Shown piece by piece: positions 52,917 through 64,000 of a DNA stretch of 64,000 bases. Below the pieces are notes generated by a model. It had not been told where the DNA came from, ran no database searches, and worked only from the letters and a program-made list of their open reading frames with translations. The translations under genes were made by a program, and so were the position numbers. Positions within the stretch are counted from its first letter, which is position 1. Each line of letters opens with the position of its first letter. The DNA is from Planctomycetota bacterium. GTDB taxonomy: Bacteria > Planctomycetota > GCA-002687715 > DRQF01. The stretch lies in assembly GCA_036479435.1 (NCBI GenBank), contig JAZGFI010000017.1, positions 38,607-102,606 on the forward strand, read 5' to 3'.

Positions 52917-52984
52917 ATAGGCCACATCGCCCGCATAAGATCCCCGCGGACCGCTCGGGTGGCGCATGCGCCGCTTGGAGGCCA

Positions 52985-53071
52985 GGAGGGATGCCGGAGT
53001 GGTCGAACGGGCTGGTTTCGAAAACCAGTGTACTCGCAAGGGTACCCAGGGTTCGAATCCCTGTCCCTCCG
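52985..53071 (+). tRNA. tRNA-Ser (CGA); CCA not encoded
   Basis: GGAGGGA acceptor; CTGGT-TTCGAAA-ACCAG; long variable arm; GGTTCGAATCC. Confidence 0.93.
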
Positions 53072-53123
53072 CTGCAAACGCTCGCTCAGCTACTGACCAG
53101 CTGATTGAGCTGAGGTCTCAAAA

Positions 53124-53213
53124 GGAGAGGTGGCAGAGTGGTCGAATGCGCACGCTTGGAAAGCGTGTGATCGTGAAAGCGATCCCAGGGTTCGAATCCC
53201 TGTCTCTCCGCCA
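53124..53213 (+). tRNA. tRNA-Ser (GGA)
   Basis: GGAGAGG acceptor; CACGC-TTGGAAA-GCGTG; long variable arm; ends GCCA. Confidence 0.95.
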
Positions 53214-53217
53214 AATA

Positions 53218-53251
53218 GCCGGCCCGGATCACTCCGGGTCGGTTTTTTTTT
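53218..53251 (+). terminator. Rho-independent terminator
   Basis: GCCGGCCCGGA-TCAC-TCCGGGTCGGT followed by a T-run. Confidence 0.8.
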
Positions 53252-53371
53252 GGCTAAGCCGCCCTTAGAGCTCCGCCTCGGTTGCCGTGACCGGCCCATG
53301 CTTTAAGATCCGCCGAGTTGACCAAGGTGGTCGAATGGCCTTTTGCTCGTTTTTCTCCGCAGGATCTGCCC

Positions 53372-57338: not shown

Positions 57339-57456
57339 GATTTCCTCTAACTAGGGTTGATGAAGTGAATTGGCCCTTGTGGCGACTGTTCTCGCGCTGC
57401 GGTCGTGGGATTGGGGCCAAAAATCGCTCATTTGTTTTCGTGAGGTGAAAAAAACT

Positions 57457-58041
57457 GTGGCAACCATCACCGATCTCACGCTCCGCGTACGCGGGGGTGA
57501 TGACGAAGCCCGAGAAGAGCTTTCAAGGCGCCTCCTGAAAGTTGTCTCGTATTACGTCTGCTGTCGTTTGGGTTCGAACTTCTTGGCCGAGCAAGAGGAG
57601 ATCATTCAGGAGACAATGCTCGAGTTCTTGCGAGCCTTTGGTCGCTTTGATCGCAGCAAAGGAACTTTGGAGGCTTGGATAATCGGCTTTGCCAAGAACC
57701 TCATCGCAAGAACTTTGTCGAGGCCGCGATTCGCCGAGATCTCCGGCGATGTCCTAGGGAAAGAGCGGACGCCGTCCTCTGAGTTTCTAAATCGCGATGC
57801 CGTGGCAATGGTTCGGGCTGAAGTAAAAACGCTGTCGCCAGGCGAGCAGGAACTGGTCAGCGTCCATATCATGGATGAAGTCCCGCTGACGAAGTTAGCG
57901 CGCGAGTCGGGAAAGACTCGCGAGACCTTGCGTGTTCTGAAGTCGTCTTTGTTTCAGCGGATAGAAAAACTCGAAATTTGGTGTGAAGTCGCCGAGTCGC
58001 TGGGCATTAGAGGCTGGGAGCAAGATGAACGAGCGCAATGA
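57457..58041 (+). CDS. Divergent ECF sigma factor
   Basis: GDDEAREEL, EEIIQET, LEAWIIGFAKN, TPSS linker, LSPGEQELV region 4; GAGG RBS. Confidence 0.65.
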   Translation: MATITDLTLRVRGGDDEAREELSRRLLKVVSYYVCCRLGSNFLAEQEEIIQETMLEFLRAFGRFDRSKGTLEAWIIGFAKNLIARTLSRPRFAEISGDVLGKERTPSSEFLNRDAVAMVRAEVKTLSPGEQELVSVHIMDEVPLTKLARESGKTRETLRVLKSSLFQRIEKLEIWCEVAESLGIRGWEQDERAQ

Positions 58042-61000
58042 AACCCTCGACCGAGCGATAGTCAGTTACTTCGTTGCGAACAGGGAAGCTGAGTCTCTTG
58101 GTCGCGACTTCGTCCTTGAAGAATTCATCGCGCGTTTCGAAGAAAACCCAGAGATCGCATCTAATATTCGGCGCCTTCACGCTGAAGTGAACCAAAGAGA
58201 ATCGACGGGCGGCTTTCCCTCACGCATCGGCGACTTCGACATCGAAGCACAAGTTGGCCGAGGAGGGCAGGGCCTAGTCTTTCGAGCCAAAGACAACAAA
58301 CTCGGGCGCCTGGTAGCTCTCAAGATTCTGAATGGGAGCCGCGTTCAAGCTGTGAAACGGCTTTTTCGCGAGGCCCAAGTTCTAAGCTCGCTTTCCGGAC
58401 TCGGGTTTAGAGACGTCTACTCCCACGGCGTTTTCGCTGAAACCTCTTTTATCGCGATGGAGTGGCTGGAAGGGCATAGCCTGCGCGAGCACATGAATGC
58501 ATGGCGTGAGCGAGTTACGGGGATCAATCTCGCCCTTCCAGATGCGCCGTCGAGGTCCCTGGCGGCGCGTGATAAATTTTTGAAAGTGATGGCACAGGCC
58601 CTGCGGCTCATGGCCAAAGCTCATGGACGGCCCGAACCCATCATTCACCGTGACATCAAGCCCGGGAACATCTTTCTGCGCGAAGACGGCACTCCGGTCA
58701 TCATCGATTTTGGCATTGCAGTAGCTCCCAAGGAGGCGACGCAGCTCACTTACACCGGACAGCTAATCGGTTCGCTCCCTTCGATGGCGCCAGAACAGCT
58801 AAATAATTCTCCTTCAAGTCGCGGCATTGGCGTCGACATCTATGGCTTTGGCGCGACGATCTACGAAGGCCTCACCGGTTTTCCCATTTTCGAAGGCGAA
58901 GATCCCGAGGAACTCGCTAGTCAAATTCGGACTGAAATGCCGCGAAAGCCCTCCGAACTCAATGCGCAGTTGGGCTCTTTCGAAGACGCGGTTGTAATGC
59001 GTTGTTTGGCAAAAGAGCCGCAAGACCGCTACCGAAACCTCTCGGAATTGGCAGACGATCTCGACAGTCTCATTCAATCCAAAAAACCCCTGGCCGCAAG
59101 AGCTCGCCCGATAGAGCGCAGCTTGCGATTTGTGCGCCAACAGAGCCGACCACTCATCATTTTGGGCACGCTGGCCCTGCTGGTGACCGTCGGCTATTTG
59201 ACTCGGCAGCTCATGTCGGCAAGCGAAGACCAAAAAGACCTGCGGGAACGGGTGTTGTCAGAGCAGACTGATTCTGAAATTGAGCGAGGCTTCTTTGCGC
59301 TCACGACTCAGAATTTCCGATTAGCCGAGCGGCTGTTTTCAGTGGCCAGGATTGCTGAACCAGAACGCGTGGATATTCGGGTCGGGCAAGTCATGACTCT
59401 TGCGCGCTTAGGTCGCGAAGATGAAGCGCGGCGCTTGATTGAGGAAATGCCCGCGGGCAATGGCGTCGTTCTGAAGGGAGAACTCTTGTCTTTCCTTGAG
59501 GGTCTAAAGTCTCAGACTGCCAAAGGACTCGATCTGCCTACCTTGAGGGAACGGGCTTTTGAATCCGGAGAGAACGTCGATCTGGTGATGTTCGTTTTCG
59601 CCACGCGATGTTTGTTCCGCAAGGGCGGAACCACTCCGGTGGTGCAAGCCCGGCTGGCTTTGGACGCCGTGTTGTCCGGCATCAGATGGTCCAAGAGAAA
59701 AGACGCCATGTTGTATTTCGTCATGGCGCAATCCGCGGTGGAGGCCGGAGACCAATCCAGGGCCTTGGAGTGCGGTGCGATTCTCAAGTCGAGTTGGCCA
59801 GATTCCCAAGAAGCCTGGCACTATGCTGCCCTTTGTTTTGCGAAGTGGGATCCGCACCAATCACTCGAGATGTTCGAACGGATGGCCGGTGCCAACAATC
59901 TGCCTCAACCCATGCGAGAAAACCATATTGAGTTGATGACCATGTGTGAGCGTGGTGAAGAAGCCCTCGTTGCGGCCGACGAGCTTCTGGCCATCGAGGG
60001 CGTCGACCGTGCATCGGCTTTTCGCGTCAAGGCCAAGGTGCTTCGTTACCTCAAACGGCACCTAGAAGAGCGCGCCGCTTTGGAGGACTCGCTCCAGATC
60101 AAACCAGATCACCCCGATGTGCTGGCTTGGCTCGGCGATTCTTTTCGCAACGTTGAACCCAAGGAGCCAAGGCGCGCCATCGAATGTTATCGGCGAGCGC
60201 TCGAAGTTGATTCTCAACGAATGGAGACCTGGATTCATCTCGGGTCCTGCCTCCAGGATTCGAGGAAATACAAAGAGAGCGAGAGTTGTTTTATAGAGGC
60301 CCGAAATATCTCCCCCAAAAACGTTCAGGCCGCAGTCTGTCTGGGATATCTGTTTCGCCGAACCGGGCGGCCTAAGCAGGCGAAGAGCCTCTTCGAACAC
60401 TTGGTCGAAACTGCGGGTGATGACGAGCGGACCCACATTGGACTCGCAAATATTCAAATTGACTTGGGCGACATGGCGTCAGCGGCCCAAACGTACCGGA
60501 GAGGCCTCATCGATTCTCCGTCGTCCAGGCAAATCGCTCACAACGCTGCATGGGTTTTTCGGCAGACCCAACTGTGGTCGGAAGAGGTGGCCGCTCGCAA
60601 AGCGATCGAGAACCTTGGAGACAGCGGCCCGCAGCATCAAGCGCCCCTTGCCGCCGCCTTTCTGCGAGTCGGCGCTTTCGAAGAAGCGCTCCAGAAATTG
60701 GTCTCACTAAGAAAAATCCCCGGCATTCAACCGGCCCCCTACATCCTGGAAATGACGGCCTACGAAAAGAGTGGGCAAAGGGACTTGGCGATGGAATCCC
60801 GCAATAAAGTGCTGAGCAAGGTCCCCGCCGCTCCCAATGGGGCCATGTGTTGGCGGTTTTTGAAGGAGAATGTCGGAGTCGAGAGTCTCCAGGCCGACGC
60901 CTTTGTGAACCTCGGGAACTTGGCCGGGGATTCTGGCGACCCGGGGCCCATGCGAGCTCGTTGGTTGAAGTTCATGCTTGGGGCTCGGCAACCGGCGGCT

Positions 61001-61135
61001 CTCATCGCAGCCTGTTGCCGGGCTTTGTCGGCTCAGCAAGATGCAGCATCAACCAGAGCCCTCTCATTCCGAGATTCACTAAGAACCGCCTTGGGCATTT
61101 TGGTCTTGGCTTCTATTCCCCGATTCGGACTTTGA
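58025..61135 (+). CDS. Ser/Thr protein kinase with TM segment and TPR repeats
   Basis: GRGGQG, VALK, HRDIKPGN, DFG, APE; TM LIILGTLALLVTVGYL; TPR motifs; overlaps the sigma stop. Confidence 0.9.
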   Translation: MNERNETLDRAIVSYFVANREAESLGRDFVLEEFIARFEENPEIASNIRRLHAEVNQRESTGGFPSRIGDFDIEAQVGRGGQGLVFRAKDNKLGRLVALKILNGSRVQAVKRLFREAQVLSSLSGLGFRDVYSHGVFAETSFIAMEWLEGHSLREHMNAWRERVTGINLALPDAPSRSLAARDKFLKVMAQALRLMAKAHGRPEPIIHRDIKPGNIFLREDGTPVIIDFGIAVAPKEATQLTYTGQLIGSLPSMAPEQLNNSPSSRGIGVDIYGFGATIYEGLTGFPIFEGEDPEELASQIRTEMPRKPSELNAQLGSFEDAVVMRCLAKEPQDRYRNLSELADDLDSLIQSKKPLAARARPIERSLRFVRQQSRPLIILGTLALLVTVGYLTRQLMSASEDQKDLRERVLSEQTDSEIERGFFALTTQNFRLAERLFSVARIAEPERVDIRVGQVMTLARLGREDEARRLIEEMPAGNGVVLKGELLSFLEGLKSQTAKGLDLPTLRERAFESGENVDLVMFVFATRCLFRKGGTTPVVQARLALDAVLSGIRWSKRKDAMLYFVMAQSAVEAGDQSRALECGAILKSSWPDSQEAWHYAALCFAKWDPHQSLEMFERMAGANNLPQPMRENHIELMTMCERGEEALVAADELLAIEGVDRASAFRVKAKVLRYLKRHLEERAALEDSLQIKPDHPDVLAWLGDSFRNVEPKEPRRAIECYRRALEVDSQRMETWIHLGSCLQDSRKYKESESCFIEARNISPKNVQAAVCLGYLFRRTGRPKQAKSLFEHLVETAGDDERTHIGLANIQIDLGDMASAAQTYRRGLIDSPSSRQIAHNAAWVFRQTQLWSEEVAARKAIENLGDSGPQHQAPLAAAFLRVGAFEEALQKLVSLRKIPGIQPAPYILEMTAYEKSGQRDLAMESRNKVLSKVPAAPNGAMCWRFLKENVGVESLQADAFVNLGNLAGDSGDPGPMRARWLKFMLGARQPAALIAACCRALSAQQDAASTRALSFRDSLRTALGILVLASIPRFGL

Positions 61136-61291: not shown

Positions 61292-63889
61292 ATGTCCACC
61301 AGCACTCCCGACCCATTCGATCTCAGCCGTGACCCCTTTCTGCGAGATGTTCCGGAGGTGGAGGGGTTCAAGGTTCTAGAACCCGTCGTGCTCTACGCCA
61401 AAATTGGGCAGGGCGGCATGGGTGCCGTCTACCGTGGCAAGCACCTTTCTTTGGACATCGACGTCGCCCTCAAGTGTCTTAAGCCCAGCTTGGCGATGGA
61501 GAGCGCTGAATTCGTTACTCGTTTCAAACGCGAAGCCCGCGTGGCGGCTGGCATCAATAGCGAAAACCTCATCCGGGTTTTTGACGTCAACGAAAGCCAT
61601 GGCCTTCATTACCTCATCATGGAGTTCGTCAGTGGTGAGTCCGCCCGGGAGCGCGTCGAGCGCAAGGGTGCCTTGGGGGTCGTAGAATCCCTGATCATCG
61701 TGCGGGGCGCGGCCATTGGCTTAGCGGCGGCGCACGCCAAAGGCGTCGTTCACCGCGACATCAAGCCCGACAACATCATGATCTCGACTACCGGCGAGGT
61801 GAAAGTCGCCGATCTCGGCTTGGCGAAAGCGGCCGAGGGTCTAGACCAACTCGAAACCCGAACGGGCATGGTCATGGGCACGCCCAACTACATGCCCCCG
61901 GAACAGTACTCGGATGCGAAGCGAGTGGGCCCGTCCGGCGATGTCTATGCCTTGGGGGTCACGCTGTACTATTTACTGGCGGGAGAAAACGCGATCGCAT
62001 CCGGGGCCTTGGTGCAAGTCATGCACCGCGTCTGTAACGAAGCCTTCCCTGACATTCGCCTGAAGCGCAGCGATCTTCCCGAGGGCTTGGCTGATCTGCT
62101 GAAAGAATGCACCGACAAAGATCCGGAGCAGCGTCCGCAGCGAGCCTCTGAAGTTGCCAAGCGTCTGATGGCTTTCTTATCCGTCGGCGAAGATGACTTC
62201 GGCGGCGTTCTCAGCGATTCTGATTCCTTGCATGACTTCGACGCTCGTAGCCTCTTGGTGTCTCCACCGCCCCAAAAAACACTGGCTCGGATCAAAGTCA
62301 AGGTGAAGGAATCATCCAACCCTTTTCTGGTGCCAACCAAGACGGGGAATCGCCCCAACGATCCATCATCAGCGGGGCCGAAACCGAAGGTTCGGCGATC
62401 GAAGCCCGAGAAACGAGCGAAGGCTGAGCCCCGCTCTGCCAAGTCCAATTCATGGATATTATTCCTGGCGCTCTTTGTGGCTGCGCTGGGCCTAGGAGGC
62501 GGTTTTTGGTGGACGAATCGCTCCCAGCCGCAGGACGGTGGGCCTTTTGATCGTCAAGCGAATGGCGTCGCAAAACCTGCGGGGAAAACGGAGCGTTTAC
62601 CGATCGAGAAAGCCGAGGTGTTGGCTGCCGATGTGATTTCTCCCTCGCTTTCGTTATCGGGCCTACCGTCCGAGACGGAAGATTCAGAGATCACCGTCAA
62701 AGGCCTTGCCTTGGATGAGAATCTCTCCAGCGTGCTGGTCGATGGTAAGCGTGCGGTGGTCGCAAAGGACGGACGTTTCTCGATCGTGGTGAAATTGCGT
62801 CTTGGTTCGAACTCGATCGTAGTTGCGGCCCAAGATCAAGCGGGGAATCGTGAAGAAAAGACGATTCGGATCGAGATGATTGAGGTCGACCGAAAAGATC
62901 CAGTCTTGTCTCTCATGGTCGTGCCGCGGCAGACGAGTGAGTCTGAGTGGCTGATCAAGGGGCAGGTCCGTGATGACAATCCGGTAGAAATCCATATCAA
63001 TGATCGGCGGACGACAGTGTCCATGTCCGGCGAGTTCTCAAGGAAGGTTTCGCTGCGCCTTGGTACGAACTCGATCGCGGTTAGGGCCCAAGATCAAGCG
63101 GGGAATCGGGCGGAAAAGAGTCTGAGTATTGAGCGTGTTGATGACCCATCGCCGGTTTTACTACTCAGGCAGCTTAACTCGGATTTGGCGATGGACTTTA
63201 AGCTCATTCAATCGGGTTCCTTTCAAATGGGAAGCCCGAGCTCAGAAAAGAACCGCGATGACGATGAAAAACGGCATCTCGTGACCTTGACTCGGGACTT
63301 CTACATGGCGAAAACCGAGCTTACACAGGGGCAATGGAAAGGCCTGATGAAGAGTCAGCCTTGGTCGGGCAAGGCCTACGTCAAGACCGGTGCGAATATT
63401 GCGGCCAGCTATCTTTCATGGGAGGACGCGCAGAAATACTGCGCCGCTATGAACCAACGCTATTCACATGGGAGCTGGAAATTTCGGCTTCCGACGGAGG
63501 CGGAGTGGGAGTTTTGCTGTCGGGCTGACAACTCTTCGGTCTTTTGTTTTGGGGAAAGCGAGTCCGGATTGGGAGCTTACGCGTGGTACGACAAGAATGC
63601 TTGGGACGTGGGGCAAAAGTACGCGAACGCGGTAGCTGCAAAAAAAGCGAACGCCTGGGGGCTTTACGACATGCACGGGAATGTCTGGGAATGGTGCCAG
63701 GATTGGTACGGCGAATATGGGGGAACCTCGAAAAATCCGGAAGGCCCGTCGTCGGGCTCCAATCGAGTCTTTCGGGGCGGCAGCTGGTTCTACGAGGCTC
63801 AGTTCTGTCGCTCCGCGAATCGCGACAGGTTCACCCCGGACCTCCGGTACAACTACCTGGGCTTTCGTCTCGTCTTGGCCCCCAAGTAA
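61292..63889 (+). CDS. Ser/Thr kinase - TM - two Ig-like repeats - FGE-sulfatase (CLec-fold) domain
   Basis: GQGGMG, HRDIKPDN, DLG, GTPNYMPPEQ; TM WILFLALFVAALGLGGGFWW; 2x LRLGxNSI..AQDQAGN; FQMGS, RLPTEAEWE, NAWGLYDMHGNVWEW, RGGSW, GFR. Confidence 0.92.
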   Translation: MSTSTPDPFDLSRDPFLRDVPEVEGFKVLEPVVLYAKIGQGGMGAVYRGKHLSLDIDVALKCLKPSLAMESAEFVTRFKREARVAAGINSENLIRVFDVNESHGLHYLIMEFVSGESARERVERKGALGVVESLIIVRGAAIGLAAAHAKGVVHRDIKPDNIMISTTGEVKVADLGLAKAAEGLDQLETRTGMVMGTPNYMPPEQYSDAKRVGPSGDVYALGVTLYYLLAGENAIASGALVQVMHRVCNEAFPDIRLKRSDLPEGLADLLKECTDKDPEQRPQRASEVAKRLMAFLSVGEDDFGGVLSDSDSLHDFDARSLLVSPPPQKTLARIKVKVKESSNPFLVPTKTGNRPNDPSSAGPKPKVRRSKPEKRAKAEPRSAKSNSWILFLALFVAALGLGGGFWWTNRSQPQDGGPFDRQANGVAKPAGKTERLPIEKAEVLAADVISPSLSLSGLPSETEDSEITVKGLALDENLSSVLVDGKRAVVAKDGRFSIVVKLRLGSNSIVVAAQDQAGNREEKTIRIEMIEVDRKDPVLSLMVVPRQTSESEWLIKGQVRDDNPVEIHINDRRTTVSMSGEFSRKVSLRLGTNSIAVRAQDQAGNRAEKSLSIERVDDPSPVLLLRQLNSDLAMDFKLIQSGSFQMGSPSSEKNRDDDEKRHLVTLTRDFYMAKTELTQGQWKGLMKSQPWSGKAYVKTGANIAASYLSWEDAQKYCAAMNQRYSHGSWKFRLPTEAEWEFCCRADNSSVFCFGESESGLGAYAWYDKNAWDVGQKYANAVAAKKANAWGLYDMHGNVWEWCQDWYGEYGGTSKNPEGPSSGSNRVFRGGSWFYEAQFCRSANRDRFTPDLRYNYLGFRLVLAPK
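62797..63118 (+). repeat. Internal direct repeat (duplicated Ig-like domain, 258-bp period)
   Basis: Identical 24-mer GGCCCAAGATCAAGCGGGGAATCG at 62827 and 63085 within longer similar blocks. Confidence 0.8.
63755..63880 (+). other. Candidate DGR variable region
   Basis: Non-conserved residues of the RGGSW...GFR end are mostly NNC codons (TTC TAC..TTC..GAC..TTC..CTC..TAC AAC TAC); GC hairpins follow the stop. Confidence 0.5.
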
Positions 63890-64000
63890 GAACAGCTGCC
63901 GCGGAGCGGCTGCAAGTGAGAACAGGCGGAGCCGCGCTGCGCTTCGCCCCAAGAGTGAGGGCGGAGCCCGAAGCGATCGGGCGAAGTGCAGTGTGGCGGA

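Follow-up and report, generated by a model that had tools for sequence, protein, structure and literature searches.

In the diversity-generating retroelements (DGRs) of Bordetella and Treponema, the RNA of a template repeat (TR) is reverse transcribed with errors at adenines, and the cDNA replaces a variable repeat (VR). The targets of DGRs are usually interpreted either as attachment proteins or as NLR-like sensors in the cytoplasm. In HRDC-type DGRs of Architecture C, as described by Wu et al. (2018, PMC5758913), the HRDC gene overlaps the RT gene, as it does in the locus reported here. The Treponema denticola TvpA DGR (PMC4891356; PDB 2y3c) is also HRDC-type and, as here, targets an FGE-type C-type-lectin-fold (CLec) domain with a C-terminal VR; TvpA, however, is a lipoprotein without a signalling domain, whereas in the present protein a TM helix and Ig repeats link a kinase to the CLec domain. 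A Hanks-type kinase is likewise combined with a VR-bearing CLec domain in cyanobacterial targets (Wu category b12), for which a signalling role is proposed by Vallota-Eastman et al. (2020, PMC7517822). These proteins are mostly predicted to be cytosolic and two of the Wu rows are avd-type cassettes, in contrast to the HRDC cassette here. A supplement row for the remote targets of Anabaena WA102 gives kinase, TPR and transmembrane regions together, without assigning them to individual proteins, so that row may already foreshadow the receptor form in part. The DGR ‘antigen sensors’ of multicellular bacteria (Dore et al., 2024, PMC10907252; Kaur et al., 2020, 2021, PMC7159879, PMC8195603), for which the analogy to adaptive immune receptors has already been made, also carry a variable CLec sensor tip, and some are predicted to be periplasmic. 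These are STAND NTPase or MoxR-vWA conflict systems, however, and neither an NTPase nor a vWA domain was found in our target, its cassette or the upstream genes scanned; the second DGR of this genome (caspase-NACHT-CLec) is of that kind. Finally, PknB/Stk1 (NCBIfam NF033483) combines a cytoplasmic Hanks kinase, one TM helix and an extended extracytoplasmic stalk, as predicted here, except that its PASTA repeats are replaced by Ig repeats and a hypermutable CLec domain.

Kinase-CLec targets and HRDC-type DGRs have been published; we did not find in print a receptor form that spans the membrane once and stands on an Ig stalk. Since such systems have already been proposed, the contribution lies in a clean architecture and in a comparative pattern rather than in any new principle. 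In a kinase that crosses the membrane once and ends in a hypermutable outer tip, variable recognition and a readable enzymatic output lie in one chain, which makes the ‘antigen sensor’ idea directly testable. The locus also supplies a pair of natural alleles, each with a template of its own, a naturally occurring variant that differs in stalk length, and static homologues as controls. The gene is the target of an intact HRDC-type DGR that rewrote its last 44 CLec codons at template adenines, and its product is likely a receptor kinase of the single-pass type with a changeable tip that is predicted to be periplasmic; we rate this reading as a whole as probable. The gene lies near the end of the window, a 64,000-nucleotide stretch of a Planctomycetota contig (JAZGFI010000017.1), and is laid out as follows.

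61292..63889, + strand: DGR target gene, 865 aa, Hanks-type Ser/Thr kinase, TM, Ig, Ig, FGE-type CLec
61394..62146, + strand: kinase domain (aa 35-285), all catalytic motifs present
62450..62512, + strand: one predicted TM helix (aa 387-407), from hydropathy only
62627..63142, + strand: two Ig-like repeats, the stalk (about aa 446-531 and 532-617, 43% identical)
62827..62850, + strand: 24-nt perfect direct repeat, copy 1
63085..63108, + strand: 24-nt perfect direct repeat, copy 2
63155..63886, + strand: FGE-type C-type-lectin-fold domain, model pLDDT 94.6

The kinase-TM-Ig-Ig-FGE architecture given in the original prediction is borne out by the open reading frame, the Pfam domains and the hydropathy peak at aa 387-407, and the 3′ sequence quoted there is present in the frame. 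Pfam places Pkinase at aa 35-285 and FGE-sulfatase at aa 638-861, and Glucodextran_B, an Ig-like domain, matches twice (best at aa 461-528). The kinase motifs run from GQGGMG (39), VALK (58-61), the alphaC Glu and HRDIKPDN (154) to DLG (174), GTPNYMPPE (196), DVYALG (217) and the Arg of subdomain XI. No PASTA repeat matched the 865-aa protein, and the PknB-type model NF033483 scored 258 bits, below its cut-off of 450. Folded alone with an 82-row alignment, the CLec domain has TvpA (2y3c, TM 0.84) as its best match in both structure and sequence; a single-sequence fold of Ig-Ig-CLec was dropped (pLDDT 35). The domain does not have the features of a catalytic FGE: of the two catalytic cysteines, which we take to be those after RGGS / KGGS, the first position is the variable Tyr834, only Cys839 is kept, and three residues are absent after Cys839. 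By analogy with TvpA (PMC4891356), the variable residues would be surface-exposed.

The 3′ end of the gene and the sequence beyond it carry the features that tie it to a DGR.

63751..63882, + strand: VR, codons 821-864, from the TR comparison
63869..63882, + strand: GC-rich 14-nt end common to VR and TR, after the last mutated adenine, IMH / IMH*-like
63874..64000, + strand: 127 nt that overlap exactly with contigs C157 and C251 at their starts
63895..63913, + strand: GC-rich hairpin right after the stop codon (z -2.6; equalled by 3 of 200 shuffles)
63931..63997, + strand: larger GC-rich branched hairpin (z -3.9; 0 of 200 shuffles)

Contig C157 carries, on the same strand as the target, an HRDC gene (162-614, 150 aa; PF00570, E 9.5e-15) and an RT gene (611-1606, 331 aa; RVT_1 with a YMDD motif) that overlap by 4 nt. 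The TR follows at C157:1623-1754, 16 nt after the RT end, and then a convergent Rieske-domain gene. The predicted DGR was therefore found directly downstream on the next contigs, with TR, RT and accessory gene, although the accessory gene is HRDC and not the avd that had been named; the cassette has no avd, no Rfam match and no sigma-70 promoter. A near-copy differing at adenines had also been foreseen, and the TR sequence guessed for it matches C251, and C157 with two letters different.

Across the 132-nt repeat, VR and the C157 template differ at 14 of 31 adenines and at none of the 101 other bases; extended to 63751-63883, the counts are 14/31 and 1/102, and this single exception sits immediately beyond the end of the repeat (Fisher p 1.1e-9). 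Against the C251 template, 16 of 33 adenines and one other base differ. The variable codons of the C157 template (11 AAY and seven with a single A) would allow about 1e17 peptides, with no stop codon reachable. VR and TR diverge past the shared GC-rich end, whose position suggests an IMH / IMH*-like element. The excess of NNC/NNT codons from which adenine mutagenesis had been predicted proved right for this VR, but such bias alone is not diagnostic: NNY codons make up 32 of the last 45 in the target and 21-40 in ten FGE-domain paralogues, for which no template was found in the assembly. None of the 18 other FGE genes in the genome emerged as a remote target of the TR.

The same cassette is present in two strain versions, C157 and C251. 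At either end both contigs have 127 nt in common with the same neighbours (C17 and C175), a pattern also seen in five other strain bubbles of 3-5 kb in this assembly. That they are instead separate DGR copies, as their overall identity of only 93% might suggest, or that the TR match reflects chance or GC3 bias, has a negligible likelihood; the shared ends and neighbours speak against the former, and chance we count as already refuted. A genome-wide adenine-tolerant scan returned these TRs for the target gene only and none for 15 other FGE genes.

Public contigs revealed a second allele, B, which differs from the allele in the window (A) at 21 nt, all within 63761-63868. Twenty of the 21 differences fall at adenines of the C251 template (binomial p 1.5e-11), and allele B departs from that template by 13 mismatches, at adenines only. 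Each natural allele thus fits its own TR version by adenine changes alone. Allele B agrees at 44/44 codons with the independent protein P0002, which, together with a C251-type RT and a C251-type HRDC protein, is consistent with one record (a longest contig of 3,989,566 nt is listed for each); between the window and P0002, 13 of 44 residues differ in VR and 17 of 702 outside it (p 1e-9). P0002 is also a one-Ig variant lacking the 86 codons between the 24-nt repeat copies, and the public contigs of runs X2 and X3 both stop at 63085. In allele A, 12 of the 14 changes are A-to-T (p 8e-5 against equal rates), possibly because of selection for aromatic residues; allele B has no such excess (five T, four C, four G). 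In pooled RT relatives T and G lead (691 T, 684 G, 225 C), as expected from the Bordetella RT preferences (10.1101/2020.04.29.068544).

Only these two alleles were seen in the survey, which covered assembled contigs, where rare variants are invisible, and in which one run may be the source sample; among the runs listed, none is recorded as RNA. Allele A is identical in the window, X2 and X7 (over 63784-64000), and allele B in X2, X3 and P0002. As the alleles reappear without change from run to run, retrohoming is demonstrated for the past, but not hypervariation in the present; of the hypervariable site originally predicted, the adenine-specific variation stands, whereas contigs show no wider variation. 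Zero differences outside VR in X3 record 17 were rejected as proof of an identical background, since the Logan HRDC protein P0126, from a contig of the same size, is a mosaic of both cassette versions; this mosaic also led us to leave a mixed TR contig in X3 out of account.

We regard it as a real possibility, though a somewhat improbable one, that the DGR is genuine but dormant, with A and B written long ago in two strains and now a fixed two-allele polymorphism. Identical alleles appear in P0002 and in runs filed under different study codes, the RT of the two versions is 8.6% apart, so the strains split long ago, and the cassette lacks avd. RT, HRDC, TR and hairpins are nevertheless intact in both versions, and the TR is better conserved (3.0% differing) than RT and HRDC (8.6-8.8%). 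The genome's one avd sits in its other DGR, and about half of HRDC-type DGRs do without it (PMC5758913). The summed depth of the X2 VR contigs (42.5, against 69.1 and 55.4 on the flanks) and the lack of an X1 gene contig across VR are weak hints of unassembled rare variants. Overall, new tips seem to be fixed rarely rather than churned continuously. Dormancy departs from the reading of an adenine-rewritten receptor kinase only on present activity.

With respect to topology, the top 19-residue Kyte-Doolittle window lies at aa 387-407 (2.0), and a second, weaker peak (aa 127-146, 1.8) is within the kinase fold. The 25 residues before the TM helix contain ten K/R against two D/E, and those after it three against two; because of this excess an N-in / C-out orientation is predicted, and five other kinase-TM-CLec DGR targets show the same strong positive-inside bias. 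The extracytoplasmic ligand site originally proposed fits the predicted outside position of the C-terminus, but the tip most likely faces the periplasm and not the cell surface. A cytoplasmic protein, or one with its two ends both inside, as in most cyanobacterial kinase-CLec DGR targets, is very unlikely; in that case the CLec domain would pick substrates or autoinhibit the kinase. Such a model was put forward for the cyanobacterial targets (PMC7517822), the hydropathy peak is moderate and its end Gly-rich, and a convincing TM helix is missing at seven of the 13 kinase-CLec loci found among RT relatives. Here, however, a single uncharged 21-residue stretch with Trp-Trp at its end is preceded by a basic cluster and followed by Ig-like repeats, most close homologues have a helix at the same place, and the PknB-type alignment (aa 35-413) runs through it.

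For the predicted receptor kinase, TR RNA would give an adenine-mutated cDNA that replaces the VR of the kinase gene, and the Ig repeats would keep the CLec domain at a distance from the inner membrane. Clustering turns on trans-autophosphorylation in PknB-type kinases; ligand binding at the CLec domain may likewise cluster the receptor and switch on its kinase, with the signal perhaps read by FHA proteins, of which the genome has 25 matches. The likeliest ligands, at about even odds, are variable foreign proteins reaching the periplasm, for instance phage proteins or effectors injected by other cells; small molecules and the cell's own envelope rank behind them. FGE-like domains bind T6SS effectors in Acinetobacter (10.1101/2021.05.21.445229).

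It appears unlikely that the variable tip serves for adhesion or anchoring or as a decoy (an immunity-like toxin sponge, for instance) and that the kinase answers something else. Most cellular DGR targets do read as membrane-anchored binding proteins (10.1101/2020.04.01.020958), and the kinase-TM chassis bears varied outer domains: TPR and DUF7477 in a sibling protein on C175, and no CLec domain at 18 of 30 close homologue loci. Such swaps on a conserved chassis, however, have the look of a receptor family. The kinase-CLec fusion is also common (of 118 kinase-domain matches, 45 have a CLec-like motif at their end, and in 34 of these a TM helix lies between), and a short-stalked inner-membrane protein would hardly reach the surface of a two-membrane cell.

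The receptor kinase can also be placed among its relatives. An alignment query of contigs recovered RT relatives; 92 A-biased repeat pairs were found among the 126 loci, five or six of which have kinase-TM-CLec targets, on separate RT branches. No DGR stood beside any of 12 close kinase-CLec homologues, and the receptor therefore works without diversification in most relatives. We offer only as a tentative and rather doubtful generalization that planctomycetes repeatedly wired DGRs onto pre-existing single-pass receptor kinases, making adaptive periplasmic receptors for injected foreign proteins (secretion-system effectors, phage proteins), with a phosphorylation response via FHA proteins and possibly their own type VI system. 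In this species the variation would then be threefold: the tip mutated at adenines, one template version exchanged for the other, and the stalk switched between one Ig and two by the 24-nt repeat. No conserved partner gene lay beside the receptor at six other kinase-TM-CLec DGR loci; a conserved ECF sigma partner was not supported, the gene being directly upstream at only one of the six (L063). In a metagenome scan with Ig-Ig-CLec, none of the 80 loci had the Ig repeat by phmmer; four had an RT and six a kinase.

The window runs to the very end of contig C17, and its last gene had originally been predicted to be a target of a diversity-generating retroelement (DGR). A template copy differing almost only at adenines, near a DGR reverse transcriptase (RT), was looked for in the assembly and found on the next contigs: C157 and C251 both start with an exact 127-nt overlap with the window end and both run into C175. 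At 93% identity, C157 and C251 make up one of the assembly's six 3–5 kb strain bubbles and are therefore two versions of a single locus; the five other bubbles (C11/C16, C32/C33, C183/C184, C219/C230 and C258/C259) show 87–94% identity. The features of the locus are as follows.

61292–63889, + strand: target gene, last gene of the window, 865 aa
aa 35–285: Pkinase (Pfam)
between the kinase and FGE domains: two Ig-like Glucodextran_B repeats (Pfam)
aa 638–861: FGE-sulfatase (Pfam)
62827 and 63085 (62827–63108): copies of a 24-nt perfect repeat, one per Ig unit
on C157 and on C251: HRDC gene, 150 aa
on C157 and on C251: RT gene, 331 aa, overlapping the HRDC gene by 4 nt
on C157 and on C251: template repeat (TR), 132 nt, starting 16 nt after the RT gene

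Of the 31 adenines in the C157 template, 14 are changed in the variable region (VR), at 63751–63882, and every other base within the repeat is identical (p 1e-9); against the C251 template the changes are at 16 of 33 adenines and a single G. The VR is followed by two hairpins and a GC-rich end common to VR and TR. No avd was found in the target's cassette, and the genome's sole avd match sits in a second DGR. Overall, the DGR is genuine, complete and of the HRDC type, and its target is a predicted receptor kinase. Genome-wide there are 17 RT matches, mostly on short contigs or contig ends, only three of them DGR-type.

TR-C157 has 11 AAY and seven single-A variable codons, giving ~1e17 peptides with no stop reachable; TR-C251 has one AAG codon, potentially mutable to a stop. 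When the whole assembly was scanned with adenine mismatches tolerated, both templates served the target alone among 19 FGE genes tested. The codon bias that had first pointed to this gene was correct here but is not diagnostic, since NNY codons number 32 of the last 45 in the target and 21–40 in 10 paralogues without a template. Three kinase-TM-FGE paralogues (C252:36334–38967, −; C17:15837–18725, −; C195:30973–33819, +) have strongly NNC-rich ends (29–39 of 45 codons) and no template in the assembly; they are possibly orphan or frozen DGR targets.

Natural VR versions were compared over 63150–64000 in four of 11 public runs, all as assembled contigs. X2 yielded two VR contigs, one with the window's allele (A) at depth 16.4 and one with a second allele (B) at 26.1. 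X3, labelled invertebrate metagenome, carried B in a contig covering the whole stretch, X7 carried A across 63784–64000, and the assembled contigs of X1 included no gene contig across the VR. The alleles differ at 21 nt, all inside 63761–63868; 20 are TR-C251 adenines and the remaining one is a TR-C251 letter. Allele B shows 13 adenine changes from TR-C251 and no other mismatch, and equals P0002, a protein of another assembly, at 44 of 44 VR codons. The records of P0002, the C251-type RT and the C251-type HRDC each give 3,989,566 nt as the length of their longest contig. The window protein differs from P0002 at 13 of 44 VR residues compared with 17 of 702 elsewhere. Since A fits TR-C157 and B fits TR-C251, this pattern implies retrohoming after the templates diverged, in at least one lineage and probably in both.

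The claim that the site is hypervariable is borne out as two adenine-specific alleles. Against continuous variation, neither A nor B changes from run to run even where the study codes differ, although the source sample may itself be one of these runs and rare variants are concealed in contigs. The VR contigs of X2 total a depth of 42.5 compared with 69.1 and 55.4 on the flanks, a weak hint of unassembled rare variants. Logan contigs can be mosaics, as in the public protein P0126, so linkage inside them was distrusted. P0002 lacks one Ig repeat, with 86 codons missing between copies of the 24-nt repeat. Contigs of X2 and X3 both break off at 63085, as expected if one-Ig and two-Ig stalks are both present, which suggests that the two forms co-exist in these runs.

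On inspection, the target kinase has the complete set of Hanks catalytic motifs. The lone hydropathy helix outside the kinase fold (aa 387–407) is preceded by 10 K/R versus two D/E and followed by three versus two; because of this helix and charge bias, a topology with the kinase inside and the C-type-lectin (CLec) domain outside is predicted. The C-terminal domain, modelled from an 82-row alignment (pLDDT 94.6), matched Treponema TvpA best (TM 0.84), which is also the top sequence match. We rejected an FGE enzyme identity: of the two cysteines of FGE, the first falls on a variable Tyr in the alignment, so the domain is a putative binding scaffold. Directly upstream on the same strand, an ECF sigma factor gene overlaps a kinase-TM-TPR gene (57370–61135), a context not conserved at other kinase-TM-CLec DGR loci.

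A CLec-like motif ends 45 of 118 kinase-domain matches, with a TM between in 34 of the 45; all 18 taxon labels visible among the closest kinase matches are Planctomycetota or Planctomycetes. These labels, together with a PSD1 domain in the genome, make a planctomycete the probable host. Kinase and CLec are encoded at 12 of 30 fetched close-homologue loci, and RT, HRDC, avd and TR were found beside none of the 12 in the 4.5–13 kb fetched (one ends at a contig edge), so that the predicted receptor chassis without a DGR is common. The nearest homologue, in a relative's genome (G002; kinase 71% identical), is kinase-TM-Ig-CLec with the same final residues, and no TR for it was found anywhere in that 89%-complete genome. 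The DGR may have been gained at the target locus or lost in the homologues; the data fit both. About 18 kb past the cassette, C175:3510–8360 (−) encodes a 1616-aa sibling receptor kinase, 61% identical in the kinase, that has a TM, Ig-like repeats, TPR and DUF7477 but no CLec; an FHA-trypsin gene precedes it.

Of the 401 genomes sampled from the phylum, 40 contain RT relatives (own genome counted); for the order the figure is four of 23. Among 126 RT-relative loci (47 stretches from sampled genomes, 79 from an alignment-query search), a kinase-CLec gene is present at 13. A clear TM, positive-inside bias and an adenine-biased TR pair occur together in five of the 13, and a sixth is weaker; the rest are kinase-NACHT-CLec or lack a TM.

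TR mismatches at adenines at kinase-TM-CLec loci
L044: 27 of 27
L063: 23 of 23
L079 (PEGA stalk): 14 of 14
L083: 13 of 13
L110: 18 of 23
L106 (weaker sixth case): 17 of 21

A quick, midpoint-rooted RT tree of 130 rows included eight labelled kinase-TM-CLec: these six, the target locus and L216, whose contig contains no TR. The label needs seven changes, six forced by strongly supported branches, and the target-locus RT has a long branch, away from the RTs of its own family and order. On this tree, therefore, the pairing of DGR and receptor kinase looks to have arisen repeatedly rather than to have been inherited once. Other same-phylum targets (L066, two genes of L080, L072, L076) have kinase-NACHT-CLec, ParA-like-NACHT-CLec and SIR2-NACHT-CLec architectures.

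Parts of this arrangement appear in the accessible text of earlier work. HRDC-type DGRs form architecture C and kinase-FGE targets class b12 (PMC5758913); in Treponema, as here, the HRDC gene overlaps the RT gene, and the VR is surface-exposed (PMC4891356). Kinase-CLec targets are described as common and mostly cytosolic, one row of supplement 1 listing kinase, TPR and TM together for remote targets (PMC7517822). DGR-variable sensors, some periplasmic, occur within NTPase systems (PMC10907252), FGS domains have been likened to adaptive receptors (PMC8195603, PMC7159879), and kinase-annotated and membrane-bound targets are reported (PMC11661182, 10.1101/2020.04.01.020958). In the accessible text of the papers searched, no DGR target was described that is a single-pass kinase on an Ig stalk; the receptor form may be in the figures or preprint supplements of known work. 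The target is well supported and experimentally convenient, its concept already anticipated in print.

PknB-type kinases are activated by ligand-driven clustering. The target could act similarly, as an inner-membrane receptor whose short Ig stalk holds the CLec in the periplasm, with FHA proteins (25 matches in the genome) as likely readers of the signal. Because the tip has 1e17 possible variants, its ligand is probably itself variable and foreign. It is established that DGRs reverse transcribe TR RNA with errors and replace the VR (PMC5758913), and Acinetobacter FGE-like domains are described as binding type VI effectors (10.1101/2021.05.21.445229). A type VI cluster (C160:4389–15895: TssA, TssB, two TssC, ImpE, TssE, TssF, TssG and a ClpV-like ATPase) lies on a contig unlinked to the target locus, and no genomic tie between it and the kinase was found.

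The second DGR spans C4:1517–5203 joined to C190:1–4906 (127-nt overlap), in the order caspase-NACHT-CLec target, HRDC, avd, RT, TR and a convergent second caspase-NACHT-CLec target; C156:67–1776 is a third, remote target of its TR. Within the window, ORF translations pointed to two tRNA-like stretches at 52917–53253 that look Ser-type by eye; a deaminase-like gene lies on one side of them and an alanine/glycine transporter-like gene on the other.
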